Positions 8,897 to 63,780 of a stretch of DNA of 64,000 bases are shown in pieces. Made by a program: the position numbers and the translations under genes. Position 1 is the first letter of the stretch, and each line of letters starts with the position of its first letter. The stretch comes from an uncultured archaeon. GTDB taxonomy: Archaea; Iainarchaeota; Iainarchaeia; Iainarchaeales; VGJJ01. The stretch lies in contig CAYZPC010000002.1 in assembly GCA_964480705.1 (NCBI GenBank), forward strand, positions 22,254 to 86,253. Direction: 5' to 3'. The notes under the pieces were generated by a model. The model had not been told where the DNA came from. It saw nothing but the letters and a program-made list of their open reading frames with translations, and ran no database searches.

Positions 8897-9365
8897 TGTT
8901 CATCGTTCCTTGTTTTTTTTCATTTTTTTCATCATACATGTTCAGCACATGGTTCACAACCATTGAGATGAGGAAACTGCATAGCACGTAGAACCAGAAC
9001 CAATCTCCTTGCGCCCAAACTAAATTGAGCGGAAAAAAGAGGTTGACTTTTGTTCCATTGTATGCGCTTGAAACCAAACCAAATAATGGGAGAAACACCA
9101 CCATGTTGACTATCATCAACTTGGGCATGCTCTTCATTGTTTGCGTGGACAAATCCAACATTTCTTTTTGGACGCGTTCCACTTCATTTTTGTCGGCTTG
9201 GTCTCCTTTTTTCATCAACTCCTTGAATTCTGCGTTTTTGACCTTCATTGCTTTTTGAACGCGGCGCATTTCCTTTCGGTTTCCAAAAACCAATTGGACC
9301 ACTTGTGTAATGACCGCGAATGCCGCGGAAATCAGCACGAGTTGCATGGCCGGATTCTCAAACAT
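8886..9365 (-). CDS. DUF106-family membrane protein (archaeal Oxa1/YidC/EMC3-like insertase homologue)
   Basis: 3 TM segments flanking a charged coiled region; canonical position between secY and eL34 in archaeal genomes. Confidence 0.65.
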   Translation of the reverse strand: MFENPAMQLVLISAAFAVITQVVQLVFGNRKEMRRVQKAMKVKNAEFKELMKKGDQADKNEVERVQKEMLDLSTQTMKSMPKLMIVNMVVFLPLFGLVSSAYNGTKVNLFFPLNLVWAQGDWFWFYVLCSFLISMVVNHVLNMYDEKNEKKQGTMNNAQ

Positions 9366-12728: not shown

Positions 12729-13312
12729 GCTTTAACACGCTCATCAATTGTTTTCTTGGTTGTTTCCACCATGGATGAAAATTTTTCCACGGAGACTTTT
12801 TCTTTCACGTATACTGCAAATTGGCTGCGATTCATTTTAGAAGGCTCCTTTTGCGCATACGCATCCACATGTTTTCCGGCTAATCGTTCAACTTTAGGGA
12901 ATGAAACGGGGTCGGCTTTCACGCTGATTCCTGCATCCACCATTCCTTTGATGGCGGCAAACAATCGTGTGCCGTGAATCGCGGGCTGAATACCTAAATC
13001 CACAATCACGTCGCCGCTCTTTTGTTTGACGGCGAGTTTTTTTCCGGCTAAGTATCCTGTCAAGTATGCGGCAGGAATGTTTCCGCCGTGTCCTTTGTAT
13101 GTGTATTCGGATAATTCTTTCGTGTGGGCTGCAACGACAATCGTGTCGTTTCCTTTTTCGGTTTGCACAAGCTGCACGCTCAAGTTGTTGGTTGACTTTC
13201 GAATCACGGCACGTGTGAGTCCGCCTTTGACGAAGGCCAATCTCTTGGTGTAATTCGTTCGTCCTTCAGCGCGTCGGCGGAAAGGAGTTTGGAATGTGCT
13301 TGTTTTACTCAT
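12725..13312 (-). CDS. rpl18: 50S ribosomal protein uL18
   Basis: FRRRAEGRTNYTKRLAFVKGGLTRAVIRKSTNNLSVQLV uL18/L5e signature. Confidence 0.9.
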   Translation of the reverse strand: MSKTSTFQTPFRRRAEGRTNYTKRLAFVKGGLTRAVIRKSTNNLSVQLVQTEKGNDTIVVAAHTKELSEYTYKGHGGNIPAAYLTGYLAGKKLAVKQKSGDVIVDLGIQPAIHGTRLFAAIKGMVDAGISVKADPVSFPKVERLAGKHVDAYAQKEPSKMNRSQFAVYVKEKVSVEKFSSMVETTKKTIDERVKA

Positions 13313-25917: not shown

Positions 25918-27801
25918 TTACTGCGGATGACCATCTTCTTCCATCATTTGCTTCAACCGACGCAAAATCTCTTGTTTTTCGTCATTTGTCGGTGTTTTGG
26001 AAGTTTGTGGGGCGGTGGTTAGTGCTCCTTCCAATTGGGAGGATTGTCGCTGAAGGGTGTTTTTGAGCTCGCTGGGGATTCCCACATCATTGTCTTTTTC
26101 TTCTTGGGCTTTACGGTGTTCTTTTTCTTTCTGGGATAAATAGTCCAAATCCGAGGCAGATAGTCCTTCCACATCCTCGAAGGGCAAACTCTCCAGCGCT
26201 TCTTCTTCACTAATTTCCTGCTCCATCGCCGATTCCATTCCACTTGAATGCGCGGGCGCCGAGGGGGCGGTGTAGGCATCAGCGTCTTCGACTTTCAATT
26301 CTTCATCAATAGACGCGCGTATTTTTTTCTCAGGTAAAACAGGTCGAGCCGCAGTATCTATGGTTGCAATTGAATTTTCGCGCGAGTGAGATGAATCATC
26401 AGTTGAGTGTGTTCCAAATGGTTGTTTCCACGGCATGGCATCACTCACGGAAGATGAAGGCGATTGTGCTTGGGGAGTGGTGCGTGCCACCCAGGGCGGA
26501 ACATAGGGTGCTGATTTCGCAGCAGGAGATGGTGCGGACACTCGTGTAGGAATGGTTGCGGGTGAGGGAGTTGAAATGATTGGATTTTTTTCTGCAGTTG
26601 GCAATGGTGTGTTTACGCGCGGCGCGGGAGTAAATTCTTTTTTGGTTTCGATTGGCTCGCGCGCAGTATTCATGGGCAACGGAGCAGTAGGGTAAATGGA
26701 TTTTTTTTCGTGAATGACCGCAGGCACGGGCTGAGTAAGCGCAGGCACATTTGTTTTTTCGCGTGCGATAGTTGCAATGTCAACTCGCGCAATGGAGGGA
26801 GGTGTTTGAGTAGTTTTCACGGGCGAAATGTCAGATGTTTTTTCACTTAATGGAGAAACGGTGCTCGCGGCTCGTGGAATAGGTGCGATGGGAGCAATGG
26901 GTTCTATGCTCGCGCGCGCGTTGGCAACAGCAGGGTTGCGTGCAGCCGCGGCATAAGGTGATGGAGCAGTTGATTTAATCGGGCTGGGCGAGACAGCAGG
27001 TGCAGTGGGAGGAGTTTGTTTTTCTCCAAATATTTTTTTCCAAAAAGATTGTTTGGGTGCAGATGATTTTGCTGCGAGCGTTGGCGTAGGAGATGGTTGC
27101 GCAGGCAGTCGTTGTGCGGGCGCAGGTGTTTGAGTGAGCATGCGTGCGGTTGGAATCGTTCGTTCTCCTGGAGGTAGAATGGGAGTCACGCGCGGCGCAG
27201 GGGAAGATGGGGGTGCGGCCTGTCGTGGAGAGGAAATGGGTGGAGCGAGTGGTTTGTTGGATGGAAGGGGTGTTGATGAAACGGGCGGCGCGCGCGGGGG
27301 AGCAGCGGCTTGTGCAGCAGTGGGAGATGGTTTGGGCAGGGTGGCAAGTCCGCGCTGAATGTAGGGCGGGTAAGGCATGTTGGAATAATAGTGTGGAACG
27401 CGCGGCGCGGGAGGCGCAGGTGATGAAGTTGTTGGTGTGGATGCGGGAGTGCGATTGGGTGCTTGTGGCAAGGACGGTGAAGCAAATGCTGATTTGGATG
27501 TTGTCGGATATACATTTTTGAGCGGCGCAGTGGGCGAGGGGCGAGAAGTGGTTGCGAGGTGAGTGTCCATTATTTCATCCAGTTGCTGCCGCATCGCTGC
27601 CTGTGCTTGCGTGCTGGCAACGGTAGGTTGAGTGCTTTGTAATGGAACTTTTTCTACGCGCGGTTTTCCAAACACGGCTAGAGAAATTTTTTTAGCAAAT
27701 CCTGGAGTGAAATCGTTTCGGGGCAATTCGCCGAGGCGTTGTTTCTCTCTTCTTTTTTGGAGAAACTCATTGATTTCATCCACTTCTTCTTGGGCGGGCA
27801 T
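25918..27801 (-). CDS. proline/alanine/serine/threonine-rich low-complexity protein (627 aa), charged N-terminal 50 aa, acidic C-terminal ~120 aa; no signal peptide
   Basis: 1.9-kb uninterrupted frame; PAP/APP/SPT repeats throughout; all competing ORFs in the region are short. Confidence 0.55.
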   Translation of the reverse strand: MPAQEEVDEINEFLQKRREKQRLGELPRNDFTPGFAKKISLAVFGKPRVEKVPLQSTQPTVASTQAQAAMRQQLDEIMDTHLATTSRPSPTAPLKNVYPTTSKSAFASPSLPQAPNRTPASTPTTSSPAPPAPRVPHYYSNMPYPPYIQRGLATLPKPSPTAAQAAAPPRAPPVSSTPLPSNKPLAPPISSPRQAAPPSSPAPRVTPILPPGERTIPTARMLTQTPAPAQRLPAQPSPTPTLAAKSSAPKQSFWKKIFGEKQTPPTAPAVSPSPIKSTAPSPYAAAARNPAVANARASIEPIAPIAPIPRAASTVSPLSEKTSDISPVKTTQTPPSIARVDIATIAREKTNVPALTQPVPAVIHEKKSIYPTAPLPMNTAREPIETKKEFTPAPRVNTPLPTAEKNPIISTPSPATIPTRVSAPSPAAKSAPYVPPWVARTTPQAQSPSSSVSDAMPWKQPFGTHSTDDSSHSRENSIATIDTAARPVLPEKKIRASIDEELKVEDADAYTAPSAPAHSSGMESAMEQEISEEEALESLPFEDVEGLSASDLDYLSQKEKEHRKAQEEKDNDVGIPSELKNTLQRQSSQLEGALTTAPQTSKTPTNDEKQEILRRLKQMMEEDGHPQ

Positions 27802-47421: not shown

Positions 47422-47745
47422 ATGAGTTTCACATACGCACTCTATTTGCTTTTCGCCCTCGCGGGGACGCTTGCATTTATGCGTGTGTTTACTATTTCAT
47501 TCACCACAAAGCAAATGAAAGCCATTTTATTTTCGCTGCTGGCAACGATGATTGTTTTCACCGCGTGGGATATGTGGGCCGTGGAACAAAAACACTGGTC
47601 ATTTGGTCTGCAGCACACGCTGAACATTTTGATTGGCAATCAACCCCTTGAAGAAATAGCATTTTTTCTCGTGATTCCATTTTTTGGAATCGTTTTGTGG
47701 GAGATGATGGGGAAATTCACCCAAACGAGGGCGAAAACAAAATGA
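47422..47745 (+). CDS. lycopene cyclase domain protein, subunit 1 of heterodimeric cyclase (CrtYc-like)
   Basis: ~100-aa 3-TM protein with conserved PLEEIAFFLVIPF (P.EE..FF) motif. Confidence 0.7.
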   Translation: MSFTYALYLLFALAGTLAFMRVFTISFTTKQMKAILFSLLATMIVFTAWDMWAVEQKHWSFGLQHTLNILIGNQPLEEIAFFLVIPFFGIVLWEMMGKFTQTRAKTK

Positions 47746-48035
47746 TGCAATACACACTCGCGGTTTCCATTGGATTTTTTCTCGTAATGGCACTTGACCG
47801 CGCGCTGCGCACGAATATTATTCGACTCACCCCCCAATTAGTGTTCACTACTCTAATTTTCCTCACATTTCAGCTTATTTTTGATAATTATTTTACCGCG
47901 CTAGGGATTTGGGTGTTCAATCCAAGCGAAACGCTTGGAATTTTTGTTCCATTCATTCCAATAGAAAATTTATTTTTCGGAATTGAAATGCTTTGGTTTA
48001 CACTAATTCTTTTTGAATGGTCGCAGAGGAAATGA
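47742..48035 (+). CDS. lycopene cyclase domain protein, subunit 2 (CrtYd-like); ATGA start/stop overlap with subunit 1
   Basis: 3-TM protein with PIENLFFGIEMLWF motif; track ORF begins earlier at 47697 in the same frame. Confidence 0.7.
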   Translation: MMQYTLAVSIGFFLVMALDRALRTNIIRLTPQLVFTTLIFLTFQLIFDNYFTALGIWVFNPSETLGIFVPFIPIENLFFGIEMLWFTLILFEWSQRK

Positions 48036-48568
48036 GAATGTGGAAAAAAATTCGCCGCAAGTGGGGCCGCGCCCTTTTTTTGAAAAATATTAATAAGCTC
48101 ACGCAGCGAATTGAACGCAATTATGCTGAGTTAGAACACATCTACGAACCATTAGGTGACATTGAAAATATGTTTGCGCTGAATAAAAAAATTGGCGCAG
48201 ACATACAGCAGATTGAGCACGAAAAACTGAAACGTAAAAAGGGATGGCGCGGCCTGATTCGCGCGGCGTGGGCATGGAGGGCCTATCGCGATTTGCGCGA
48301 ACAAAAATTTATCAAAAGCACCAGTTCAGAACAATACATCAAAGCTCGCGATGCATTGATTCGGATTGATTTATTGGAGCTGGGCCTGAAGAAAGAAATT
48401 CTCTCCGATAGAGAGGCATCTGAATTGTTTGTGCTTCGCCGTCAAAAAAAGAATTTTGAGAAGGCAGTTGCTAATTATCAAAAAGCGGTTGTGCTGGCAG
48501 CTGCGCGAAAAGAAAGGAAGTCTATTTCTTCGCGAAAATCTTCTCCGCACACGTCCGGGCAGAAATAA
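48017..48568 (+). CDS. hypothetical basic alpha-helical protein (183 aa)
   Basis: ORF track only; overlaps CrtYd by 19 bp and the convergent crtI 3' end by 47 bp. Confidence 0.3.
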   Translation: MVAEEMRMWKKIRRKWGRALFLKNINKLTQRIERNYAELEHIYEPLGDIENMFALNKKIGADIQQIEHEKLKRKKGWRGLIRAAWAWRAYRDLREQKFIKSTSSEQYIKARDALIRIDLLELGLKKEILSDREASELFVLRRQKKNFEKAVANYQKAVVLAAARKERKSISSRKSSPHTSGQK

Positions 48569-50072
48569 GCACCATGGGCATTCCTCCCCCTGGATGGGTG
48601 CTCGCACCCACAAAATACAAATGGTTGAATTCTTCGCTTTTTTGAGAGGGTCGGAAAACGCTGCTCTGCATGAATGTGGGAGAAAGTCCAAACGTCGCGC
48701 CGAAATTCATTCCGCTCAGCGCTTCCCACTCATTTGGAGTGAGCATTTCCTGCATGCGGATGTGTTTTTTCAAATTAGTGAGACCATTTTTTTCAAGTTG
48801 CGCAATGATTTTTTCTGCAAACTCTTTTTTTATTGAATTCCAATCGATGGGATGTCCATTTTTGGGATCGTTGGAGGGAACGGGAACGAGCACATACAGC
48901 AAATGCTTTCCCTTCGGGGCTAATGTTGAGTTGGTGCGCGAGGGCACGTTCACATAAATGCTTGGACTTGTTGAGAGTACTTTTTGTTCGAATAATTCGT
49001 GGAAGTTTTTCAAAAAATCCTCGCAGAAAAACACATTGTGATGCAGCAGCTGCGGGTAATCCGTGTCCACTCCCAGATAGAGCATGAATGCCGAGCACGT
49101 GTATTCGAGTTTTTTTAATTTTTCATCGGAATATTTTTTCCGAGATGTAGCGTGAATCAATTTTGAATACGTGGCCGGCAAATCCACATCGGACACTATT
49201 TTTTCCGCGCGAATAACTTCATTTGTATCGAGGCGAATTCCCGTTGCGGTGTTATTTTCAATCACAATCTCGGAAACATTTTTTCCATAATGGATTTTTA
49301 CTCCTAATTCGAGCGCGAGTTTTTCTATTTCGCTCACAATGGAGTATATTCCATTTTGGGGGTACCACACGCCCTGCGCTAATTCCACGTAGGGGACAAT
49401 GGTGTATGTTGCCGGCGTTAAGAGTGGGCTTTGTCCTAAGTACATGCTCTGAAAGCTGAATGCGAGTTTTATTTTTGGATTCGTAAAAAAGGTTGACATG
49501 TGGTCCCACATCGAGTGGAAGCCGTCCGCGTGTAAGAATGATAAAAATTTTCCCGAGAGGACGATATCCCAAATGGATGTGGGGGATTGGGCGATGAAAT
49601 TGGAGTAAACGTTTTCATACACCTCGTATTCGTGTTCGAGAAAGCGCAAAAACCCTCGCGCATCTTCAGGAGAAACGCGTTTTATTTCGCGGAGCATTTC
49701 GGGAAGATTCGAACTTACATCTAAGTGTTGTGCGTCCCAAAAATGCAAGCGGTACGATGGGGTGAGCAGGTTGATGGGCAGCACATCCTGCATTTTTTTT
49801 CCGCAGTAAGCAAATAACTCTTCAAATTCTCCCGGCATGAGGAGGAAAGTCGGTCCCAAATCAATGGTGTATCCTTTTACCTTTCGCTGCGCCGCTCTTC
49901 CCCCGGGAAAAGCGTTTTTTTCGTATATTTCCACGCGCTTACCCTGTTTAGCGAGGCGGCATGCGAGGGCAAGCCCCCCGAGTCCGGCGCCAATAATGAT
50001 GATTTCAGGCTCCCCTGCCGGAGAAGAGTGGAGTGTTTTGGCTCGTGTGCGGGAAGAAGATGGGGCTGCCAT
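48522..50072 (-). CDS. crtI: phytoene desaturase family FAD oxidoreductase (CrtI-like)
   Basis: IIIIGAGLGGLALACRLAKQGKRVEIYEKNAFPGGRA dinucleotide fold; ~500-aa CrtI length; downstream of crtB. Confidence 0.85.
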   Translation of the reverse strand: MAAPSSSRTRAKTLHSSPAGEPEIIIIGAGLGGLALACRLAKQGKRVEIYEKNAFPGGRAAQRKVKGYTIDLGPTFLLMPGEFEELFAYCGKKMQDVLPINLLTPSYRLHFWDAQHLDVSSNLPEMLREIKRVSPEDARGFLRFLEHEYEVYENVYSNFIAQSPTSIWDIVLSGKFLSFLHADGFHSMWDHMSTFFTNPKIKLAFSFQSMYLGQSPLLTPATYTIVPYVELAQGVWYPQNGIYSIVSEIEKLALELGVKIHYGKNVSEIVIENNTATGIRLDTNEVIRAEKIVSDVDLPATYSKLIHATSRKKYSDEKLKKLEYTCSAFMLYLGVDTDYPQLLHHNVFFCEDFLKNFHELFEQKVLSTSPSIYVNVPSRTNSTLAPKGKHLLYVLVPVPSNDPKNGHPIDWNSIKKEFAEKIIAQLEKNGLTNLKKHIRMQEMLTPNEWEALSGMNFGATFGLSPTFMQSSVFRPSQKSEEFNHLYFVGASTHPGGGMPMVLISARTCAEKIFAKK

Positions 50073-50093
50073 ACTGAAATATACTTTTGCACC

Positions 50094-50978
50094 CTATTTT
50101 GTTTTAATGTGCGCGGAAAGCGCTGTTTTTTCGGCGTGCAATAATTCTTTTTTTCGTTCATCTGAAACGTAAACGCGTTCCGTGTACACATCGTAGTTTC
50201 TTTTTTCTATCTCATTCAGTATTTCACGGTAGAATACGAGGCTGAGGCGCATTCCTAATTGTGCTTCGCGCGGAAGGTGTGCAATTCCTTCTTCGGAGCG
50301 CGTGTAATAGTCCCGCGCCCGCGTGATTTGATAATGCATCATTTTTCGAAAGGCGTCATTTTGTTCGCGCGATGCAATTTGGGAGTGAGTGTAATTGAAT
50401 TGTTTCAACTCGTCCTGGGGCAAATATACTCTTCCTGCATCGTGGTCTTCTTTTACGTCGCGCAGAATATTAGTGAGTTGCATCGCCACACCTAATTCAA
50501 TTGCATGTTCTAATGCGGAATGCGGCGCGCGGAGGACGTATGCCATGAGCAATCCGGGGATTGCTGCGGCAGAGAAGCAGTATTCGTATAGTTCGTCAAA
50601 ATTTTCATATGATTTTTTGTCTAAATCTTTTTCCAACCCATCCATTAGGCGGAAACCCCATTCGCGTGGAATAGCATACTGTCTGCACGTCTGCACAAAC
50701 GCATGCAAAATAGGGTCGGGGGAGGTTTCATTCTCCCACGCCAGAGTGAGATTGTTTCTCCACTCATTCAATCGAAGTTTTTTTTCCGCGAGCGATAAAT
50801 TTCCATCCACGATTTGATCAGTAACACGGCAAAAACCATAGGTTGCGTACGCGGCTAAGCGTTCTTTTTCAGGCAGATGCTCGGCAGCAAGGGAAAAACT
50901 AGTGGCGTGTTTTCGGCAAAGTTTTTCGGAATGAGAAAAATCAATGGCGGAAGTGTCCATTGTATTGGAAAGGCTCAT
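50094..50978 (-). CDS. crtB: phytoene synthase (squalene/phytoene synthase family)
   Basis: YCFSAAAIPG and QLTNILRDVKEDHDAGRVYLP motifs. Confidence 0.85.
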   Translation of the reverse strand: MSLSNTMDTSAIDFSHSEKLCRKHATSFSLAAEHLPEKERLAAYATYGFCRVTDQIVDGNLSLAEKKLRLNEWRNNLTLAWENETSPDPILHAFVQTCRQYAIPREWGFRLMDGLEKDLDKKSYENFDELYEYCFSAAAIPGLLMAYVLRAPHSALEHAIELGVAMQLTNILRDVKEDHDAGRVYLPQDELKQFNYTHSQIASREQNDAFRKMMHYQITRARDYYTRSEEGIAHLPREAQLGMRLSLVFYREILNEIEKRNYDVYTERVYVSDERKKELLHAEKTALSAHIKTK

Positions 50979-51053
50979 TGATACTATGTGGGTTTTTGAT
51001 TTAATAAAAGTGCTCTCGCACGCGCGAGAAGATGCGTGAATTAGAATGGGGAA

Positions 51054-52253
51054 TTACCACCCGTAATGGGCAGCGCGCGAGTATCCGAATGCGAGGAATG
51101 CATCCACCACGCCTTTTTGGTATAAGTCATAGTTGTGCGAGAGCACGTTGAATCCGACTTTTGCTTTATCCACGGCAGTCAGGTTGGATAATTCTTGAGG
51201 CATTAAGTGTCCAATGCGGTTTAACTCGTCTTCGGTAAAATTGTAGAGCGCATTTTTTCCTTTGATTATTTTTCCATAGGAGGGGAATTCATTGCGCCAC
51301 TTTTTTTCATACGTTGACAAAAAAGTTTTTGAAAAATTGGAATGAGTGAATGCGTCTTTTGCTACTTCCGCAGCCATGCGTCCGCTGACTAATCCTAATT
51401 GGGTTCCCCCTTCAAATAGTGGAGAAGTGAATCCCGCCGCATCGCCAATCAAAATGATTCCATCTCCCACCGTGTTTTGCACGGGTCCCGATGAGGGAAT
51501 GGGTCCGCCGAATGTTTTCACTATTTTTTTGTTTTGCCAATTCATTTCTTTCACGAATTGGTCCAAATACATTTTTGCTTTGGTGATATCAGTAGTCACA
51601 AGCCCCACATTGGCTCGCCCATCATTTTTGGGAATCATCCACAAATAGCCATGGGGAGAGAGTCGAGGCCACAAATAAAAGTCTAAATAATTTTCATGTG
51701 GAATATCAAGCATTTCATATTGGATTCCTGTCGTGACACTAAAGCGTGGGTTCATGTTAAGCATGCGGTTGGCCACTCCCGCGGCGCCGGAAGCGTCGAT
51801 AACCATGCGTGCGCGCACCATTCCTTGAGATGTTTGAATCTCCCACACATCATTTGTTCGGGCTAAACTGGTTACGCGCGTGGATAATGATAAGTGTGTG
51901 CCCGCATTCTGTGCCTCGTTTGAAAGCCATTTTTCAAACGCGTGTTTCTCTAAAACATATCCGGCTTCAGTTAATTTCACTTTGTGCGAGTCGGGAAAAA
52001 TAACATTGACTCCTTTGACCGGAAGGGCGATGACTTCTTTGGGAAATTTCATGTTGATGCGAACTTCAGCCATTTCACTTAAGCATTCCCCGCAGTGCAC
52101 CGGGTCTCCCACGCTGGCGTGTTCTTCAAGAATTACTGTCTTGAGCCCCATTTTAGACGCATGAATCGCCGCACTTCCCCCAGCGGGGCCTGCACCAATG
52201 ATGGCAATATCATACAGTGTCTGCGTGTCTAAGGTCATAGTATCATCGGCCAT
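51054..52253 (-). CDS. geranylgeranyl reductase family FAD-dependent oxidoreductase
   Basis: YDIAIIGAGPAGGSAA, HCGECLS motif characteristic of archaeal GGR. Confidence 0.8.
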   Translation of the reverse strand: MADDTMTLDTQTLYDIAIIGAGPAGGSAAIHASKMGLKTVILEEHASVGDPVHCGECLSEMAEVRINMKFPKEVIALPVKGVNVIFPDSHKVKLTEAGYVLEKHAFEKWLSNEAQNAGTHLSLSTRVTSLARTNDVWEIQTSQGMVRARMVIDASGAAGVANRMLNMNPRFSVTTGIQYEMLDIPHENYLDFYLWPRLSPHGYLWMIPKNDGRANVGLVTTDITKAKMYLDQFVKEMNWQNKKIVKTFGGPIPSSGPVQNTVGDGIILIGDAAGFTSPLFEGGTQLGLVSGRMAAEVAKDAFTHSNFSKTFLSTYEKKWRNEFPSYGKIIKGKNALYNFTEDELNRIGHLMPQELSNLTAVDKAKVGFNVLSHNYDLYQKGVVDAFLAFGYSRAAHYGW

Positions 52254-52292
52254 AAAAAAGAATTAAAAGGCACCCGAGTAAGGGGGGCAGGA

Positions 52293-52904
52293 TTAGTGTC
52301 CTGCGGCCTTTCGTCCTTCCATGAGGCGCATGTTCTGAACAAACGTCTCGGGGTTTTTCCAATTAAGATTTTTCATGAAGGCTTCAATGTAGTCTTTGCG
52401 TTTCGTTCCATAATCCAAAAAGTACGCGTGTTCATACACGTCGAGTATGAGAACAGGAGAGCAAGACCAAATTCCACCGTGGTTGTGCACGTCCGCAATG
52501 TAGTTGTGTAACTTCATGTCTTCCCAATCGAATGCGAGCACAACCCATCCGCGTGCGCATAATCCCAATGCCTTAAACTCGGCTTCCCATTTTTCATAGG
52601 AACCAAAATCTTGCTCAATCATATGAAGCAAATCCCCTGCTGGTTTTCCACCGTTTCCACCCATCGCGGCAAAATATCCTTCGTGCAAGCGCACCCCATT
52701 CACGGCAAATCCTTCTTCAAGTTTGAGTTCGCGCAAATCGGAGTGTGTTCCATTGGCTTTCGTCAAATCCACTGTTTTCAATTTTTCGCGGATTTCATCT
52801 GTTTTTTTCACGTACCCCACGTACAACACGTCGTGGTGCTCGGCCAATTGTTTTTCGGTTAGACCATTGAGGGCTTTGTAGGTTAAGGGTTTGGGTTCGG
52901 TCAT
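52293..52904 (-). CDS. sod: Fe/Mn superoxide dismutase (start at internal Met MTEPKPL)
   Basis: ...LDVYEHAYFLDY signature; upstream 110 codons of the track ORF overlap the methyltransferase gene. Confidence 0.85.
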   Translation of the reverse strand: MTEPKPLTYKALNGLTEKQLAEHHDVLYVGYVKKTDEIREKLKTVDLTKANGTHSDLRELKLEEGFAVNGVRLHEGYFAAMGGNGGKPAGDLLHMIEQDFGSYEKWEAEFKALGLCARGWVVLAFDWEDMKLHNYIADVHNHGGIWSCSPVLILDVYEHAYFLDYGTKRKDYIEAFMKNLNWKNPETFVQNMRLMEGRKAAGH

Positions 52905-52974
52905 GAGAATCACTCCTATCGTGAACGATATGTAACATTCGTTAATCAAAATGGCTTTAAACGACACCTCGTGT

Positions 52975-53634
52975 TTAGCGGGGGCGCATAAAAAGCACCA
53001 CGTATCCAGCCGAAAGCGGTTGGGCGTGCGTGCGCAGCGCAGGGGAGGTCGTTTCTGCCACGGGAACCTTTTCCACGAGGACGCGGCACCCCTCAAGAGA
53101 CGAAAGGGTGGAGAGTTTTTCCAAATACGCTTCTTCAACGCGGGACATTTCTCCCTCAAACGCATGCGTTCCGTGTGCGTCGCGGAAACGAATCCATAGG
53201 TAGGCACGCCCCCCGGGGGCGAGAGCGTGAGCAATGCGCGGCAATAGAGTGGAAAAGTTTCCTATTTCATGCAGGGCGCGAAAACTAACTATAATATCGC
53301 ACTCCCTCGACAGTGGAACCGTGTGCACATCCCCCTGAATGAATTCATCCAGCATGCGAGAGTCTTCGAGCGGGAGCAAGTCCACCCCTACCGTATGCAC
53401 TAAACTGCTCACGTGTTGCTTGACTTCGTGCAGCGCTTGTCCATTTCCGCAGCCAATGTCCAATATTCGACACGACCCTTTTTGGCGAATATATTCGGCC
53501 GCCATTTTTTCCAGAGGAGTGTTTTCTCCGAGGTTTTGCAGAAAGGTGTTGTATTGTTTTAGCGTCTGGTCGCGGAGAATGACTCCTTGCGCGTACCGTT
53601 CGCGGTATTTTTGGGCAGTATTTTCGAATGTCAT
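52975..53634 (-). CDS. class I SAM-dependent methyltransferase (start at internal Met MTFENT)
   Basis: ILDIGCGNGQAL motif I; post-I acidic residue VGVDL. Confidence 0.7.
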   Translation of the reverse strand: MTFENTAQKYRERYAQGVILRDQTLKQYNTFLQNLGENTPLEKMAAEYIRQKGSCRILDIGCGNGQALHEVKQHVSSLVHTVGVDLLPLEDSRMLDEFIQGDVHTVPLSRECDIIVSFRALHEIGNFSTLLPRIAHALAPGGRAYLWIRFRDAHGTHAFEGEMSRVEEAYLEKLSTLSSLEGCRVLVEKVPVAETTSPALRTHAQPLSAGYVVLFMRPR

Positions 53635-53662: not shown

Positions 53663-54091
53663 TTATTGCAGTGCGCGCTGCTGTTCGGATATTTTTTCTT
53701 TAAGTTGTGAAATGGGAATGCGTCCGGACTTTCCCGATAATTCATCGTGATAATACAATATGGTTGGTTCGTCAAATTGCCAGCATAATAATATTTCTCT
53801 ATTTTCAAATGTGGAATAAAAATCCACTAACCCTTGGGTGACGTCTTTTACATAGCACCCCAATCGAGTGAGTGCTTCCAACTCCGCAAAATATTTGAAT
53901 GATAATTCATGATAGCGTTTGTTGATGTTGATTGCCAAAAGGTGAGCCTGCCAGTCGAATGTGTCGGCGTGCACTTTCACTCCCGACAGTGCGGAGAGTT
54001 CATCGTGAATAGACATGAGCTTCTCCAAGTGTAACTTCACTTTGGGAAGCAGCCGCTCGGCTTCGTGCAATGTAAAATACCGGTGAGCCAT
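53663..54091 (-). CDS. conserved hypothetical protein (DUF2203-like)
   Basis: N-terminus MAHRYFTLHEAERLLPKVK resembles DUF2203 proteins; assignment from memory only. Confidence 0.4.
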   Translation of the reverse strand: MAHRYFTLHEAERLLPKVKLHLEKLMSIHDELSALSGVKVHADTFDWQAHLLAININKRYHELSFKYFAELEALTRLGCYVKDVTQGLVDFYSTFENREILLCWQFDEPTILYYHDELSGKSGRIPISQLKEKISEQQRALQ

Positions 54092-54129: not shown

Positions 54130-55647
54130 TCATCGTGCGAATTTTTGCACACGCGCGCGGATTTTCTTGTACGCGGTGCGTGCCTGAATGGTTTGTGCAA
54201 GTTTTTCATCCGTTTTTTGCGGTCGTGTGAGATTTTCAGGGCGCATTATTTTTTCTATTTCAGTCGGGGTCAGAAGTCCTTCGGCTCGAATGATTTTTTC
54301 TACACTCACATGATTAGCCATGGCCTTTTTCACCATGAATGCGACCACATCATATCCTAAGTATGGATTCAGTGCAGTAGCGGTGGAGACGCTTTGTTGC
54401 AGCAGCATGTTCATGCGCGGCGTGGGGCGAATTTTTTTCAAACATTTTTCGCGGAACATTTTCAATCCGTTTGTTAAAAGTTCTTGCGACTCAAACAAGT
54501 TGCTTCCCATCACGGGCGTCATGACATTCAATTCAAGCTGCGTTGCCTCGCAGCTCAAACGGATGGTTTCATGATTTCCCTGCACGTGCAACGCGATCAT
54601 TTTCATTGCTTCTAAAATACTTGGGTTGATTTTTCCCGGCATGATGCTGCTTCCCGGTTCCACTTCCGGCAAGTGAATTTCTCCTATTCCAGCATACGGG
54701 TCTGAACCCAGGAGTATCCAGTCATTCATCCAAATCAGTAAGTCGCTCGCAAGTGTTGAGAGTGCATCCGAGTAGCGTTGAAACACACTCATGTGGCTCG
54801 TGTGATACATTTTTCGGTGCGAGGGGTAGAATGGAATGCCCGTCTCGCTGCGCAAGCGTTTAACCACTGCCACATCATACCCTGGTTCAGCGGTTATGCC
54901 CGTTCCGACTGCCGTCCCCCCAAGTGAGAGTTCGTGCATTTTTTCCTTGGTGGAGCGGATGCTCTGCCAGTCCTCGCGGAGGGATTGGGCGTACACGTAC
55001 AATTCTTGTCCAAATGTCACAGGCACGGCTGTTTGCAAGTGAGTGCGCCCTGTTTTGCTGGTGGTGCGGTAGTGGTGAGAAAGTTCCTCCGCGGCGTGAA
55101 TTGTTTCCATGAGTTCTTTTTCCAAGTGCGCAGAATACGATAATGTCGTGAGGCGAAGCGCCGTGGGAATGACATCATTAGTGGACTGCGCCATATTCAC
55201 ATGAATGTTTGGATGTATGCGCGCGTATTTTCCTTTGCGTTCTCCCAGCATTTCGAGCGCGCGATTGGCGATGATTTCATTCATCATCATGTTCAACGGT
55301 GTTCCCGCGCCGGCTTGAAACACATCTAAGTCAAACAGCTCATCAAATTTTCCGCGTTGAACTTCCTGTGCCGCGCGCACAATGGCATTTCCTTCTTTTG
55401 GTGGTAGTCTGCCCGCGTGCACATGTTCTTGCGCGGCAACCTGTTTCAATAATGCTAATCCATGATAGAAAGAGATGGGAAACCGTCTTGTTGAAAGTGA
55501 AAAGTTTTCATGAGCACGTGCGGAGAATATTCCTGTGTATGAATTAGCGGGAATGATTTTGGTGCCAATGGAATCTTGTTCGTGCCGCACTGTTTTGGAT
55601 GTGCGTCGTTTAGCGTGAGTGGGCATGTGTTTTTCTCCATTTTTCAT
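54130..55647 (-). CDS. class II fumarate hydratase / aspartate ammonia-lyase family enzyme (fumarase favoured by context)
   Basis: GSSIMPGKINPSILEA signature loop; ...GTAVGTGITAEPGYD...; 4-bp ATGA overlap with sdhB stop. Confidence 0.8.
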   Translation of the reverse strand: MKNGEKHMPTHAKRRTSKTVRHEQDSIGTKIIPANSYTGIFSARAHENFSLSTRRFPISFYHGLALLKQVAAQEHVHAGRLPPKEGNAIVRAAQEVQRGKFDELFDLDVFQAGAGTPLNMMMNEIIANRALEMLGERKGKYARIHPNIHVNMAQSTNDVIPTALRLTTLSYSAHLEKELMETIHAAEELSHHYRTTSKTGRTHLQTAVPVTFGQELYVYAQSLREDWQSIRSTKEKMHELSLGGTAVGTGITAEPGYDVAVVKRLRSETGIPFYPSHRKMYHTSHMSVFQRYSDALSTLASDLLIWMNDWILLGSDPYAGIGEIHLPEVEPGSSIMPGKINPSILEAMKMIALHVQGNHETIRLSCEATQLELNVMTPVMGSNLFESQELLTNGLKMFREKCLKKIRPTPRMNMLLQQSVSTATALNPYLGYDVVAFMVKKAMANHVSVEKIIRAEGLLTPTEIEKIMRPENLTRPQKTDEKLAQTIQARTAYKKIRARVQKFAR

Positions 55648-56486
55648 GTTCTTCTTCGTTTAGGAGAGTTTTTCTCTTTTTGAAGGGCGCTCATTTCACG
55701 AATGCGGTCTCCAGGGGCAATGTTCCGGGGGCACCAATTGGCCTTTTCCAAGGAATAGTGCACGGGGAGCATGGTCGAGTACCCTTCCACGCGTCGAGTA
55801 TCCCCATCCCGCATGTCAAACGTGTAGCGGTAGGCCTTTACCCACGCGGCCGGCCCTATCTCTCCGGCGTTTTTTCCATTCGTTTGAACAGAAGAAACAT
55901 TGGCATTGCAGAGTCCGCAGAGGATGCACTCCTGCGTCCGTGAGAGTTTTTTGACGTCATTTACTCCCATTTTGTGGTGTCTTCGCTCATCGTGTTTGCG
56001 CGGCACCACCCAGGGTTTGATTCGCAGTAATTCATCGAAGAATGGTTTTTCATCCACCACCAAATCTTTTATCACGCGCTCCACGTCTAAGGGTTCAATC
56101 CGCAGCGTGCGCGCGTGCGTGTCCATAGCATCGGAGACTTGTGTCACGCACCCCAATACGGGTTTTCCATTCACTTTTACTCCGCATGAACCGCATCCCC
56201 CGTAGCCGCAGCTTCCTCGAAAGGTCAAGCTTCCATCCTGCGTGTGTTTGATGCGCGTGAGTAAATCCAACACGCTTTCTCCTGGGTTTGCGTGGAGCGC
56301 ATATTCGTGGGTGCGCGGGTAGAAGTCCATTTCGGGATTGAATCGCGTCACGCGAACGTGCATAAGTGAATGTGTTTCCGTACGAATAGTGGCCGCGCGC
56401 GTGGATGCGCGTGTTTTCTTTTTTCGCACTATCTTTCGAGTCGCTTTTTTCGATTTTGAAGAGGATGAGCGTGTTTTTTTGGCCAT
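55644..56486 (-). CDS. sdhB: succinate dehydrogenase/fumarate reductase iron-sulfur subunit, atypical (8 Cys only), basic N-terminal extension
   Basis: [2Fe-2S] CGYGGCGSCGV...C and CILCGLC...WCP; canonical [3Fe-4S] ligand positions are V and absent. Confidence 0.8.
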   Translation of the reverse strand: MAKKTRSSSSKSKKATRKIVRKKKTRASTRAATIRTETHSLMHVRVTRFNPEMDFYPRTHEYALHANPGESVLDLLTRIKHTQDGSLTFRGSCGYGGCGSCGVKVNGKPVLGCVTQVSDAMDTHARTLRIEPLDVERVIKDLVVDEKPFFDELLRIKPWVVPRKHDERRHHKMGVNDVKKLSRTQECILCGLCNANVSSVQTNGKNAGEIGPAAWVKAYRYTFDMRDGDTRRVEGYSTMLPVHYSLEKANWCPRNIAPGDRIREMSALQKEKNSPKRRRT

Positions 56487-56487
56487 A

Positions 56488-58200
56488 CTAGTAGTGCCTC
56501 GCCTCAGGAGAATATCCTTTGATGATAACAGGTTTGTAATTCAGCTGAACATTTTCCCCGTGTTGAGTGGCGAGCGTGTGTTTCAGCCATTTTTGATCAT
56601 TGCGCGTAGGATAGTCTGTTCGCGCGTGGCTGCCTCTTGTTTCCGTTCGCGCAAGTGCGCTCGCGAGAATGGATTGGGAAAATGTCACGAGGTTTTGGCA
56701 TTCGAGTGCGGCGATTAAGTCCGTGTTGAATGTGTGTGAGGTGTCTTCGGCACGAATAGCACGTGCTGGCGTGTGGAGTTTTTTCCACGCGTTCATGGCG
56801 CGAGTCAAACTTGCTTTGTTTCGATACACGCCGCAGTCATTCATCATCACGCGCTGGAGTTTCTCTTGAATAATGTGGCTTTTTTCTCCCCGTTGCGCGG
56901 TGAGAATGGTTTGAATCCGTTCGCGGGCTTTTTCAACATGTTCGGTTGAAATGGGTGCGTGGTTTTTTCCGTGTTCGCGCACGTATGCAGCCATTTGCTG
57001 TCCGGCGATGCGTCCGAATACTAATGTTTCAAGCAGAGAGTTTCCTCCCAGGCGGTTGGCGCCGTGCACGCTCGCGCAGGCCACTTCTCCTGCGGCAAAT
57101 AATCCATGCAGGGGAGTGTTGTGCGCGTCAGTAGTTACACGTGTGTGAATGTCCGTGGGCACGCCCCCCATACTATAGTGAGCAGTGGGTACCACAGGGA
57201 TGAGTTCGCGCACGCAGTCTATTCCGAGTTGTTCGTGCACTGTTTTTCGTATTTCGGGGATTTTTTCCATAATGGTTTTTTCTCCCAAATGTCGAACGTC
57301 CAAGTACACGTGGTCTTTTTTTTCTCCCGCGCCTCTTCCTTGGAGTATTTCAGTGGCAATGGCGCGCGCAATCACGTCGCGTGAGGCAAGTTCCATTTTT
57401 TGCGGAGCATATTTTTGCATGAATCGTTCATTTTTTCCATTGAGCAAAAAGGCTCCTTCTCCGCGCGAGGCTTCACTCACAAGAAATCCTTTTCCATACA
57501 TCCCACTCGGATGAAACTGGACCATTTCCATATCTTCTAATGGCAATCCCGCGTTATACGCGAGTACGAGTCCGTCTCCCGTGCAGATTCGCGCATTTGA
57601 AGTAGTGGAGAATGCTCTCCCATATCCTCCCGTCGCTAGCAGCGTGGCGTGGGCGCGTGCCACCAGTAGTTTTCCTTTTTCCATGTCCCACAACACCGCG
57701 CCCTTGCACGCGTTGTTTTCAATGATGAGAGAAAGCGCGTAATATTCTGGATACACCGTCGGGTGTGCTTTCAGGAGTTGGTCATACGTCGTGTGCAAGA
57801 GCATGTGCCCCGTGCGGTCGGACGCATAGCATGTGCGTGCCACACTTTGTCCGCCGAATGGGCGTTGGGCAATTTCTCCTTTGGTTGTGCGTGAAAAAAC
57901 CACTCCCCAGGATTCCATTTCGCGTATTCGCGCGGGGGCGTCTTTGCATAATAGTTCAACCGCATCCTGGTCTGCGAGAAAATCGCTCCCATACACGGTG
58001 TCGCGGAAGTGGGCTTTCCAGTCATCATCTGCAGAGAGTGCGGCATTAATCCCTCCCGCGGCGGCTACCGAGTGTGAACGCACGGGATGAACTTTGGAAA
58101 TGATTCCCACATCCATGTTTTGGTTGCGCGCTTCAATCGCCGCGCGTTGTCCCGCGAGTCCGGCGCCAATGATGAGCACATCGTGTGTGAGTTGGGACAT
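56488..58200 (-). CDS. sdhA: succinate dehydrogenase/fumarate reductase flavoprotein subunit
   Basis: LIIGAGLAGQRAA; RSHSVAAAGGINAA (covalent-FAD His); FHPSG; LGGNSLLE. Confidence 0.9.
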   Translation of the reverse strand: MSQLTHDVLIIGAGLAGQRAAIEARNQNMDVGIISKVHPVRSHSVAAAGGINAALSADDDWKAHFRDTVYGSDFLADQDAVELLCKDAPARIREMESWGVVFSRTTKGEIAQRPFGGQSVARTCYASDRTGHMLLHTTYDQLLKAHPTVYPEYYALSLIIENNACKGAVLWDMEKGKLLVARAHATLLATGGYGRAFSTTSNARICTGDGLVLAYNAGLPLEDMEMVQFHPSGMYGKGFLVSEASRGEGAFLLNGKNERFMQKYAPQKMELASRDVIARAIATEILQGRGAGEKKDHVYLDVRHLGEKTIMEKIPEIRKTVHEQLGIDCVRELIPVVPTAHYSMGGVPTDIHTRVTTDAHNTPLHGLFAAGEVACASVHGANRLGGNSLLETLVFGRIAGQQMAAYVREHGKNHAPISTEHVEKARERIQTILTAQRGEKSHIIQEKLQRVMMNDCGVYRNKASLTRAMNAWKKLHTPARAIRAEDTSHTFNTDLIAALECQNLVTFSQSILASALARTETRGSHARTDYPTRNDQKWLKHTLATQHGENVQLNYKPVIIKGYSPEARHY

Positions 58201-61553: not shown

Positions 61554-62915
61554 CTACTTAGCCTTCAACTCATGCACTTTGGCGTTCATCACGGCTTCCA
61601 AGTCCTTGAGTTGGCGGATTTGTCCCATGGTGGTGACGAATGTGATGGAAACGCCCTTTTTTCCCTTTCGAGCGGTTCGTCCGATGCGGTGGACATAGGT
61701 TTCATTTTCTTCCGGGAAGTCAAAATTAATCACGTGCGTAATGTCTTCGATGTGAATTCCCCGCGCAGCGATGTTGGTTGCGAGCAATAGAGAATATTTT
61801 CCCTCTTCGAAGTCCGCTAGGTTTCGTTGGCGTTGTACTTGTGACAAGTCTCCATGTATTTCTCCCACGCGGATTCCATTGTGATGCAATTGTCGCGCCA
61901 ACCAATCAACGGTTCGTTTTGTCGAGCAGAAAACAATTCCTTTGGTGATGTTAAAATGCTGAATTAATCCAAGCAGCATTGTCACGCGTTCGCGCGGGTC
62001 CACGTTCAAATAATATTGAGTGATTCCCTCTACTGTTAGAGTGTCCTCGCTCAAGTTGATTTCTTTGTAATCGTGCAAATATTTTTTGGCGAGCGATTTA
62101 ATTTCGGGCGGCATGGTGGCGGAGAACAATAGTGCTTGTCTCTCGTACGGCAATTGAGAGAAAATGGTTTCAATATCGTCTTTGAAACCCATGTCGAGCA
62201 TTTTGTCGGCTTCATCTAACACGGCAAAACGAACATGAGACAAATCCAATGTTCCTCGGCGCATGAAATCCATGAGTCTTCCGGGCGTTCCCACAATAAT
62301 TCCCGGTCCGGCGTGCAATCCTTCGGCTTGCATGTTCATGCTCGCTCCACCAAACACGGCGAGCACTCTAGTGTGCGTGTGTTTTCCAATGTTTTCTAAT
62401 TCATCCCTCACTTGCAGGGCGAGTTCGCGCGTGGGAACCACAATGAGTGCTTGGGGTTTGCGTATGGTTGCATTGACGTGTGTGAAAAGGGGAATTCCAA
62501 ATGCAGCTGTTTTTCCCGTGCCTGTTTTGGCTTGTCCTAACACATTTCGTCCGCTTAAAATATGGGGAATCGTTTCCGCTTGAATGGGAGTAGGATAAAT
62601 GTAGTTGAGTTCACGCAGTCCCTGTTGCACAGCTGGAGGGAGGTTCATGTCGGAAAAGCGCATGCCGCTTTCATGCGGGGCAGGAGAGTGGGAATGCGTG
62701 GGCGAATGAGAAGTGTTTTCGTGCGTTTGCACACTGGAAACGGGCGCGCGAGCCGGTGTTGCGTGCGGAGGAGAAGGTGTTTTTGTTTCCGCATGTGAAA
62801 TAGAAGGAATTTCTCCCGTGTGGGGTTGGGCGAGTGGAATTTTGCTCGTGGAGCGTTTTTGGGTTTTGGCCGTTTTTCCTTTGACGGCTTTGGGGGGTTT
62901 GGAGGCCTTGCTCAT
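61554..62915 (-). CDS. DEAD-box ATP-dependent RNA helicase with ~80-aa low-complexity N-terminal extension
   Basis: Q-motif, AKTGTGKT, PTRELA, VLDEAD, SAT, HRIGRTAR. Confidence 0.9.
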   Translation of the reverse strand: MSKASKPPKAVKGKTAKTQKRSTSKIPLAQPHTGEIPSISHAETKTPSPPHATPARAPVSSVQTHENTSHSPTHSHSPAPHESGMRFSDMNLPPAVQQGLRELNYIYPTPIQAETIPHILSGRNVLGQAKTGTGKTAAFGIPLFTHVNATIRKPQALIVVPTRELALQVRDELENIGKHTHTRVLAVFGGASMNMQAEGLHAGPGIIVGTPGRLMDFMRRGTLDLSHVRFAVLDEADKMLDMGFKDDIETIFSQLPYERQALLFSATMPPEIKSLAKKYLHDYKEINLSEDTLTVEGITQYYLNVDPRERVTMLLGLIQHFNITKGIVFCSTKRTVDWLARQLHHNGIRVGEIHGDLSQVQRQRNLADFEEGKYSLLLATNIAARGIHIEDITHVINFDFPEENETYVHRIGRTARKGKKGVSITFVTTMGQIRQLKDLEAVMNAKVHELKAK

Positions 62916-62961: not shown

Positions 62962-63780
62962 TCACCTTTTTTTGGAATGTTTTTTACGCGAGGGAATGGT
63001 CTTTTTCCTCAGCGAAGAGACGTTTGAACGGGTTTTTTTCGTTTGGGTGCGAGAGGGTTTGGTGCGAATGCGTGCAGGGGATGCTTTGCGTGCGCGGGTT
63101 TTCGTTTTCTCTTTCGGCAAAAGGTACGCAGGGGTAATGTGGTGCTGTGCCGAGCGGAGCAGGTGCACAAAATCCTCTACCGGCAATGCCCCCGTAACAG
63201 GGAGGTGATTGATGAGGTAGGTGGGCACGCCCCTCACTCCATTGAGTTTGGCCACGCGCGTGAATTCTTCTACTTGCGCATGATTTTTTTCATCTTGAAT
63301 GAATAAAAGAAATTTTTCGACATCAAAATTAAGTTTGAGGGCGATGCGACGCAGCACGGCGAAAGATGAAATGTCCATCGTGTGTTCAAATGCGTGTGCG
63401 AACATTTCATCCATGTATTGTTCTTCTTTTTTTTCGTGTTGAGCGTACAAAAATCCAATGAGTGCGCGCTTGGAACTTGCTTCATATTTGGGAGGAAAAA
63501 TGAGTATGTTTTCTTTTTCCGCGAGGGGCGTCAGTTGTGCGTACACGTGATGCACATTCTCATGTCCAATTATTTTTTCTTTTTCCACGCGATGGTTTTG
63601 GTTATGCGCGTATAATTCAAACGGCACCCAGGTTATTTTGGTAGGAATGCGTGCGCGCTTCACCGCGTGTTTAATTCGCGCACGTGCGAGATACGACCAC
63701 GGGCACATGAAATCAAAGTAGGCAGTGATGTGCACCGGGTGTGCGTTTGCGTGTGGAGCGGGCATGCTACTCAAAATCAA
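62962..63780 (-). CDS. DsbA/FrnE-like thioredoxin-fold protein with CPWS (single-Cys) motif and basic C-terminal tail
   Basis: ITAYFDFMCPWSYLA near N-terminus; ~200-aa thioredoxin-like body; C-terminal 60 aa Lys/Arg/Thr/Ser-rich. Confidence 0.6.
   Translation of the reverse strand: MILSSMPAPHANAHPVHITAYFDFMCPWSYLARARIKHAVKRARIPTKITWVPFELYAHNQNHRVEKEKIIGHENVHHVYAQLTPLAEKENILIFPPKYEASSKRALIGFLYAQHEKKEEQYMDEMFAHAFEHTMDISSFAVLRRIALKLNFDVEKFLLFIQDEKNHAQVEEFTRVAKLNGVRGVPTYLINHLPVTGALPVEDFVHLLRSAQHHITPAYLLPKEKTKTRARKASPARIRTKPSRTQTKKTRSNVSSLRKKTIPSRKKHSKKR

Follow-up and report, generated by a model that had tools for sequence, protein, structure and literature searches.

A complex II-type SdhAB lacking the [3Fe-4S] cluster ligands in Iainarchaeota, a candidate quinone-independent fumarate reductase

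Analysis of a 64-kb stretch of DNA from an uncultured archaeon of the Iainarchaeota (contig CAYZPC010000002.1, positions 22,254 to 86,253 of the forward strand; the whole 64,000 nucleotides are referred to below as the window) revealed an iron-sulfur subunit of the succinate dehydrogenase/fumarate reductase family, SdhB, in which all three ligands of the [3Fe-4S] cluster have been replaced. Its gene is located between those of the flavoprotein subunit SdhA and of a lyase of the class-II fumarase/aspartase superfamily, and no gene for a membrane anchor adjoins them. To our knowledge, three iron-sulfur clusters are present in all characterised SdhB and FrdB proteins and likewise in TfrB, and it is through the distal one that the quinone or the anchor is reached. 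We interpret the Iainarchaeota SdhAB as a cytoplasmic, quinone-independent enzyme of the complex II family, most likely a fumarate reductase working with a non-quinone protein partner, and assign to this reading a probability of about 0.5.

The three genes and the features discussed below are as follows (positions are those of the window):

58200-56488, minus strand: sdhA, 570 amino acids (aa), flavoprotein subunit of the succinate dehydrogenase/fumarate reductase family
58057..58074, minus strand: SdhA motif HSVAAA; His43 is the predicted covalent-FAD histidine and Ala48 (58057-58059) stands at the position of E. coli SdhA Q50 and FrdA E49
56484..56490, minus strand: stop codon TAG of sdhA, one nucleotide, start codon ATG of sdhB (sequence of the junction)
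56486-55644, minus strand: sdhB, 280 aa, iron-sulfur subunit with two cluster-binding sites only
56367..56486, minus strand: N-terminal extension of SdhB, about 40 aa, rich in Lys, Arg, Ser and Thr (from alignment)
56148..56210, minus strand: [2Fe-2S] ligand motif C93-x4-C98-x2-C101-x11-C113, translation CGYGGCGSCGVKVNGKPVLGC, equivalent to E. coli C55/C60/D63/C75
55896..55928, minus strand: first ferredoxin motif C187-I-L-C190-G-L-C193-N-A-N-V197, with three [4Fe-4S] ligands and V197 at E. coli C159
55728..55763, minus strand: remnant of the second ferredoxin motif, V242-HYSLE-K248-ANW-C252-P253, with V242 and K248 at E. coli C206 and C212
55644..55647, minus strand: ATGA start/stop overlap of sdhB and the lyase gene, 4 bp (sequence of the junction)
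55647-54130, minus strand: lyase of the class-II fumarase/aspartase superfamily; 505 aa when counted from the first ATG, or 498 aa if M8 is the start

Cluster ligands of SdhB

The membership of SdhB in its family is indicated by a score of 171 bits on TIGR00384 (dhsB; cutoff 88). In the Pfam scan its only match is Fer2_3 (98.5 bits) and, unlike canonical SdhB proteins, it has no match of the Fer4 type. The protein contains exactly eight cysteines. Their assignment rests on concordant results from an alignment with E. coli SdhB (1NEK_B) by HMMER, from two alignments by MAFFT and from translation of the DNA. C93, C98, C101 and C113 form the [2Fe-2S] site; they are kept in 21/21 Iainarchaeota SdhB sequences and occupy invariant columns of a 24-sequence alignment. 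The other four, C187, C190, C193 and C252, correspond to the E. coli [4Fe-4S] ligands C149, C152, C155 and C216, respectively. The [3Fe-4S] ligands are all replaced: C159 by V197, C206 by V242 and C212 by K248, so that the residues defining a canonical third cluster are absent. The initial annotation of this DNA had counted eight cysteines, four for each of the two remaining clusters, and had placed the segments CNANV and VHYSLEKANW by hand at the three lost ligands. Its count and assignment are borne out by the translation and the alignments, the HMMER and MAFFT alignments place these segments at the same positions, and the multiple alignment with E. coli SdhB, proposed there as a check, places no cysteine of the present SdhB at any [3Fe-4S] position.

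The surroundings of the lost site have changed as well. The quinone-site W164 and the CPSFWW region are gone, and the equivalent of His207, beside C206, is retained within the segment PVHYSLEKAN. This segment stands in place of the second ferredoxin motif and is itself highly conserved across Iainarchaeota SdhB, being part of the 36 columns that are invariant over the 24 sequences. Because the lone Cys-Pro of the second ferredoxin motif survives, in what is by origin a duplicated 2x[4Fe-4S] ferredoxin fold, the sequence argues for a two-cluster state that is derived rather than primordial.

Structure prediction for SdhB with AlphaFold2, on a 24-sequence alignment, gave a weak model (mean pLDDT 66.7, pTM 0.44), with residues 1-26 and the cluster loops below 50. 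A Foldseek search with this model returned only SdhB/FrdB chains, at a TM-score of about 0.3, a result that speaks for family membership and carries no conclusion on cluster exposure.

The N-terminal extension is present in all Iainarchaeota orthologues at variable length, and neither canonical SdhB proteins nor the bacterial ones without a [3Fe-4S] site possess it. Tails rich in Lys and Arg are found in several non-ribosomal proteins of the window: at both ends of SdhB (56367-56486 and 55644-55680), at the C-terminus of the lyase (54130-54220), at the N-terminus of a DEAD-box helicase and at the C-terminus of a DsbA-like protein (62830-62915 and 62962-63050, respectively). They are probably disordered, and such basic tails look like a habit of the lineage rather than a property of SdhB.

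Conservation of the ligand loss in Iainarchaeota

The database search yielded about 35 close SdhB homologues with 45-99% identity, after which the score falls from 251 to 147 bits, where canonical SdhB proteins begin. The gene occurs in about 15 genomes named 'Candidatus Iainarchaeum' or 'uncultured archaeon' and in one locus titled Thaumarchaeota (L015). The distribution was scanned in a GTDB-based collection with one genome per species, to which further contigs were added; the complete 1.05-Mb genome CP064981.1 is included.

The three [3Fe-4S] positions are non-cysteine in 20/20 Iainarchaeota loci (37-99% SdhB identity), whereas cysteine is kept there in 20/20 canonical loci. Over the 20 loci the residues found are A/V/T/S at the first position, V/I/P at the second and K/N/L/D/Q/S/A at the third, with two of the three positions varying, and the replacing residues cannot ligate iron. 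The remaining eight cysteines are kept throughout these loci, except for the equivalent of C152 in L001/L013. Outside L005, the Iainarchaeota SdhA proteins likewise keep the FAD-linking histidine together with H242, E255, R286, H354 and R399 (E. coli numbering), with Ser at the position of T254. Judged by this pattern of residue conservation, sdhA and sdhB are working genes under constraint.

Membrane anchors and redox partners

A motif and transmembrane (TM) scan of the 73 open reading frames (ORFs) of the window detected no SdhC/D, CCG/HdrD, CxxCH or CxxCxxCxxxCP protein. Two small unannotated membrane ORFs with 2-3 predicted TM helices lie about 53 kb away (635-1048 and 1049-1399); the small membrane ORFs of the window have no SdhC/D-type Pfam match. 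As a control, the same-strand neighbourhood of sdhAB was scanned in every fetched locus. An SdhC/D-like small multi-TM ORF or a two-CCG ORF stands beside sdhAB in 0/27 loci without the [3Fe-4S] ligands versus 12/20 canonical loci, and the only ORF flagged among the 27 is an ABC permease. The hypergeometric probability of this contrast is about 2e-6, a figure to be read with the Iainarchaeota loci not being independent; one archaeal lineage and five or six bacterial contexts make a fairer independent count. The statement of the initial annotation that no sdhC/sdhD-like genes are adjacent thus extends to the whole window and to the loci of the relatives. The enzyme is accordingly pictured as soluble, with a partner that would not be a quinone, and the neighbours of the analogous bacterial genes described below strengthen this picture.

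The flavoprotein SdhA

SdhA matches the Pfam families FAD_binding_2 (1.7e-113, 380 bits) and Succ_DH_flav_C (5e-40, 137 bits). Its score of 746 bits on TIGR01812 (cutoff 567) places it in the SdhA/FrdA family, compared with 375 bits on the nadB model and 170 bits on that of flavocytochrome c, while on TIGR01816 ('sdhA_forward') it falls just below the cutoff (686 bits, cutoff 727). The best matches in the PDB are SdhA chains with 490-510 bits, against 403 for FrdA and 213 for L-aspartate oxidase. In the alignment the catalytic H242, E255, R286, H354 and R399 are kept and T254 is replaced by Ser. The FAD histidine and the catalytic residues lie in the motifs RSH43SVAA, FHPSG, ASRD, AHYSM and GANRLGG. 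From its sequence, SdhA is predicted to be a normal flavoprotein with covalent FAD that interconverts fumarate and succinate.

One position departs from the known pattern. Ala occupies the site of SdhA Q50/FrdA E49 in 9/9 Iainarchaeota SdhA proteins, and Q or E is found there in 18/18 other sequences compared; this residue is reported to tune the bias between succinate:quinone reductase (SQR) and quinol:fumarate reductase (QFR) activity.

The lyase and its link to fumarate

The third gene follows sdhB with the ATGA overlap, and this junction, which recurs in L003, L006, L007 and L009, suggests that the two genes are translationally coupled. The initial annotation had described the overlap correctly and had given the sdhA-sdhB gap as 2 bp, where the actual gap is 1 bp.

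The product matches Lyase_1 and FumaraseC_C in Pfam and possesses the complete catalytic set of its family: the SS-loop GSSIMPGKINP with K324 and N326, T187/H188 (GRTHLQ) and QSTND. The catalytic residues examined for FumC are common to aspartases too and do not discriminate between the two. Nor do the overall comparisons: the lyase shares 36-40% identity with each of E. coli FumC, E. coli AspA and Bacillus AspB, its PDB matches are aspartases at 341-324 bits and FumC at 317, and it remains below the cutoffs of both TIGR00979 (fumC; 404 bits, cutoff 665, with E. coli FumC at 846 as control) and TIGR00839 (aspA; 407 bits, cutoff 681). Beside FumC and the aspartases it represents a third clade, composed mostly of DPANN members, and its motifs QSTND and GAGT are aspartase-like. 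The nearest DPANN lyases are named 'aspartate ammonia-lyase' by NCBI. This name was rejected for the present protein, since the underlying model NF008909 (PRK12273, 'aspartate ammonia-lyase'; cutoff 510), on which the lyase scores 492 bits, also accepts the genuine E. coli FumC at 545; this name may consequently be unreliable for DPANN lyases.

The genomic context is more informative. In L020, the most divergent Iainarchaeum, a malic enzyme is encoded between sdhB and the lyase gene, and in the bacterial locus L046 a class-I fumarase, non-homologous to the Iainarchaeota lyase, directly follows sdhB. On account of these two cases a role as fumarase is favoured. The lyase would make or use fumarate, with malate as its most likely other substrate and aspartate as the alternative. 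Of the earlier 'fumarase' call, the placement in the class-II fumarase/aspartase family stands and the context favours the function, whereas the sequence does not assign it, the FumC and AspA scores being tied.

Some further variation concerns the lyase and its locus. In the core Iainarchaeota lyases the Asp of THLQDA is replaced by Thr or Ala, and it is kept in the compared FumC, AspA, AspB and other lyases of the DPANN clade; the divergent L020 orthologue retains this Asp and has QSSND instead of QSTND. In L019 (CP064981.1), sdhB and the lyase gene are separated by an inserted HicA/HicB toxin-antitoxin pair (8729-9176) that is encoded on the other strand. In L020, the lyase gene is followed, about 1 kb downstream, by an ORF (12247-12933) that has a signal- or TM-like N-terminus and ends in ...YHCALHPFMQG, which resembles a cupredoxin copper site.

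Bacterial SdhB proteins without the [3Fe-4S] ligands

The same three [3Fe-4S] cysteines are missing from a group of SdhB proteins, 216-241 aa long, that come from Chloroflexota and from unassigned metagenome contigs. A profile search against 1.84 billion cluster representatives returned 13 clusters of this kind among the best 150 matches, the other 137 being mostly canonical. The loci analysed are L023, L031, L043, L046, L048 and the P0049 contig. The neighbours of the bacterial sdhAB genes include, in one case, a flavin reductase (Flavin_Reduct) and a major facilitator superfamily transporter; in a second case, on the upstream side a succinyl-CoA-ligase-like alpha subunit to which Fer4 is fused and on the downstream side an electron-transferring flavoprotein (ETF)-domain protein; and also MmgE/PrpD dehydratase-family genes. 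Some of these bacterial enzymes may act on substituted succinates.

In the neighbour-joining tree of full-length SdhB, the archaeal and bacterial groups without the [3Fe-4S] ligands are joined in 97/100 bootstraps. The signal comes from the C-terminal domain only: the joining is found in 99/100 bootstraps for this domain, 5/100 for the N-domain and 0/100 for SdhA. A single origin of these SdhB proteins was therefore rejected as unsafe; the values for the N-domain and SdhA make convergence or domain exchange likelier, and convergent losses in the two groups are probable on the sequences compared. The SdhA tree places the Iainarchaeota sequences closest, among canonical ones, to the archaeal sdhAB loci L021 (Methanosarcinales), where a CCG protein follows, and L038 (Methanomassiliicoccales). 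This grouping suggests that the Iainarchaeota genes descended from a type-E-like enzyme.

Gene neighbourhood

The upstream neighbour of sdhA encodes a GT4 glycosyltransferase. The window further contains a ribosomal-protein/SecY block, EF-1alpha, EF-2, RNA polymerase subunits and one tRNA-Leu. The lyase gene is directly followed by that of a DUF2203 protein (53663-54091, 142 aa, 92 bits), which adjoins the sdhAB-lyase block in 20/20 Iainarchaeota loci. The possibility that it serves as a partner or in assembly was weighed and set aside, as the protein carries no redox motif, its gene lies on the other strand in L020, and synteny extends over the entire region.

Just downstream, the region 47422-53234 encodes phytoene synthase, phytoene desaturase, a split lycopene cyclase, a geranylgeranyl reductase-like protein and an Fe/Mn superoxide dismutase (SOD), and this combination of a carotenoid set with SOD represents aerotolerance or pigment functions unexpected for a DPANN genome. 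The SOD gene is located three genes downstream in every Iainarchaeota locus long enough (L014 and L016 stop short). Together with the geranylgeranyl reductase-like gene it is core syntenic in the loci reaching that far, and in some of the Iainarchaeota loci (L002/L017, L019, L020) no phytoene genes were detected. Elsewhere in the window, at 25918-27801, an ORF of 627 aa has no cysteine and no Pfam match and falls in the 2-kb bin with the strongest GC skew of the window (+0.29).

Proposed function and alternatives

In complex II, the [4Fe-4S] cluster is the low-potential member of the electron wire, and the [3Fe-4S] cluster bridges it to the quinone. In the Iainarchaeota enzyme this wire would be shortened, running from FAD through [2Fe-2S] to [4Fe-4S] and ending there. 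Without the [3Fe-4S] relay the distance between [4Fe-4S] and a quinone would be too long for efficient tunnelling, so a soluble partner would be required; as the terminal centre, [4Fe-4S] would exchange electrons with a soluble ferredoxin or with a flavoprotein of the ETF or flavin-reductase type. Since this centre has a low potential, input from ferredoxin or flavoprotein, and with it the reduction of fumarate, would be the more natural direction. The co-translated lyase would connect fumarate to malate (most likely) or to aspartate, and the step from fumarate to succinate would act as the cytoplasmic electron sink of a fermentative cell. With a malic enzyme, malate and fumarate could be dismutated, one branch leading from malate through fumarate to succinate and the other from malate to pyruvate, CO2 and NAD(P)H, so that malic enzyme, fumarase and fumarate reductase would together allow a redox-balanced use of C4-dicarboxylates. 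Most DPANN genomes are without electron-transport chains and are predicted to be those of fermenters (PMC6349945); the cell considered here is probably fermentative.

Several observations weigh against this fumarate reductase reading. Neither the window nor the conserved neighbourhood yielded an electron partner, and the search for anchors in this genome covers the 64 kb of the window. Synteny among the Iainarchaeota loci extends beyond 15 kb, and gene adjacency among them is for this reason weak evidence of functional linkage. The lyase gene is missing in three lineages (L002/L017, L005 and L015). Moreover, some copies are damaged: the SdhA of L005 (5703-7418) carries R399G and T254P, with no lyase gene at the locus; the sdhA of L002/L017 (L002 6303-8026) is frameshifted near residue 100, with the lyase gene absent too; and the SdhB of L001/L013 carries C152G. 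This damage implies that the system is dispensable in some members. A co-decay of sdhA with the loss of the lyase was considered for L005 and L002, where it is suggestive, and was not retained, as the SdhA C-terminus of L015 is intact and the L002/L017 frameshift may be an assembly error. Finally, by overall similarity SdhA is nearer to succinate dehydrogenases than to E. coli FrdA, the Fe/Mn SOD, the carotenoid genes and the O2-stable class-II lyase would equally suit an aerotolerant, succinate-oxidising cell, and malic enzymes usually decarboxylate, which fits a catabolism from succinate to pyruvate too.

These last points lead to the main rival reading, in which the same soluble two-cluster enzyme runs oxidatively, converting succinate from the host or the environment through fumarate and malate to pyruvate and passing its electrons to a soluble acceptor or, wastefully, to O2. 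It draws on the closeness of SdhA to SQR flavoproteins, including the near-cutoff score on TIGR01816, on the normally malate-decarboxylating malic enzyme of L020 and on the nearby SOD gene, since electron leakage from isolated SdhAB to O2 is a known effect. On general grounds, however, electrons leaving succinate (about +30 mV) would have to end on a [4Fe-4S] cluster of low potential without the downhill step that [3Fe-4S] provides, which would be unfavourable; no acceptor was identified, the linkage to SOD may be a matter of general synteny, and this direction is regarded as the less likely one. Improbable is another substrate pair, either L-aspartate/iminoaspartate, with a NadB-like SdhA and the lyase as an aspartase, or a substituted succinate. 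The NCBI name of the nearest DPANN lyases and the aspartase-like QSTND and GAGT would agree with the former, and the MmgE/PrpD and CoA-ester genes adjoining the bacterial analogues with the latter; but the name is non-discriminating, SdhA scores about twice as high on the SdhA/FrdA model as on nadB and keeps the covalent-FAD histidine that L-aspartate oxidase is known to lack, and a class-I fumarase and a malic enzyme are found in equivalent contexts.

That the enzyme is a membrane-bound succinate:quinone or quinol:fumarate oxidoreductase, its anchor subunits being encoded elsewhere, is highly improbable. The window represents 64 kb of the genome and holds the two small membrane ORFs mentioned above, and the His207 equivalent is kept. 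Against it stand the loss of the quinone-proximal cluster ligands and of the W164/CPSFWW surface, the contrast in adjacent anchors with canonical loci, and the rarity of respiratory chains in DPANN genomes (PMC6349945). A decaying relic of complex II in a reduced genome, with no present function, would explain the R399 and T254 changes in L005, the frameshift in L002/L017, the C152G substitution in L001/L013 and the three lineages that have lost the lyase, yet both ORFs are intact in most of the 20 loci, the eight cysteines, the SdhA catalytic residues and the PVHYSLEKAN segment are conserved, and the same architecture recurs in unrelated bacteria; this explanation, too, is given very little credence.

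Implications

A wider proposal is advanced tentatively. The two-cluster SdhAB may form a distinct class of complex II that arose at least twice, in Iainarchaeota and in bacteria such as Chloroflexota, through convergent loss of the quinone-proximal cluster after loss of the anchor; a soluble partner would dock at the [4Fe-4S] cluster, and in DPANN cells the enzyme would provide a cytoplasmic electron sink to fumarate. Karavaeva and Sousa (2023) reportedly proposed that complex II grew out of a soluble SdhAB module to which anchors were attached repeatedly. The two-cluster SdhAB bears on that idea of a soluble-module origin, and the lone Cys-Pro points to a derived form. If the fumarate reductase reading is true, the catalytic dimer of complex II can be reused as a soluble redox enzyme by trimming of its wire, possibly more than once. 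Such an enzyme would offer a simple system for electron exchange between a low-potential [4Fe-4S] cluster and protein partners, and would give a concrete redox-balancing reaction to Iainarchaeota, members of the DPANN, in which respiratory chains are mostly absent (PMC6349945).

The finding also bears on annotation. The protein is named 'succinate dehydrogenase / fumarate reductase iron-sulfur subunit' by JGI and only '2Fe-2S iron-sulfur cluster-binding protein' by NCBI, and pathway tools may tally a two-cluster sdhAB as respiratory complex II.

Comparison with known systems

No account of an SdhB without the [3Fe-4S] cluster, nor of fumarate metabolism in Iainarchaeota/Diapherotrites, was found in the literature that could be searched; an earlier description outside it is possible. 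Compared with complex II of types A-F (E. coli SdhCDAB, 1NEK; FrdABCD, 1KF6), the Iainarchaeota SdhA, the [2Fe-2S] N-domain of SdhB and its [4Fe-4S] site are homologous, whereas two defining features, the third cluster and a nearby anchor, are lacking. In the type E enzymes, SdhABEF of Sulfolobus and related archaea and MFR of Campylobacterota, the anchor is the CCG-domain protein SdhE, and no CCG protein is encoded in the window. The type E SdhB retains the third cluster, converted to [4Fe-4S] by an extra cysteine, while the SdhB described here has no third cluster at all. The type E enzyme requires its CCG subunit SdhE (PMC2754724).

Soluble flavoproteins of the same superfamily that do not use quinones include flavocytochrome c3 of Shewanella, yeast Osm1/Frd1, the NADH:fumarate reductase of Klebsiella and NadB (PMC10238741). 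Unlike the Iainarchaeota SdhAB, these single-subunit fumarate reductases and NadB have no SdhB-type subunit, and their FAD is non-covalent. With FumC and AspA/AspB the Iainarchaeota lyase shares the full fold, the SS-loop GSSIMPGKxNP, T187/H188 and (S/T)ND, and it scores below both equivalog cutoffs.

The thiol:fumarate reductase of methanogens, TfrAB, is a soluble, quinone-independent enzyme of two subunits with SdhA- and SdhB-like modules (PMC11459464, PMC12329440). However, TfrB is about 490 aa long and includes, as a fused part, an HdrD-like CCG domain that serves to oxidise thiols, whereas the present SdhB has 280 aa and no CCG motif. On the TfrA model NF004900 the Iainarchaeota SdhA scores 524 bits (cutoff 718) and on the TfrB model NF004898 SdhB scores 110 bits (cutoff 385), which places the pair outside the TfrAB family. 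Hydrogenobacter thermophilus possesses a cytoplasmic five-subunit, NADH-dependent fumarate reductase of the SdhA type with a soluble donor rather than quinol (Miura et al. 2008, cited in PMC13147460). It has three extra subunits for the input from NADH, and no such genes are present at the Iainarchaeota locus. By its predicted working mode, the Iainarchaeota SdhAB resembles TfrAB and the Hydrogenobacter enzyme and, as far as the sequences tell, is a member of neither.

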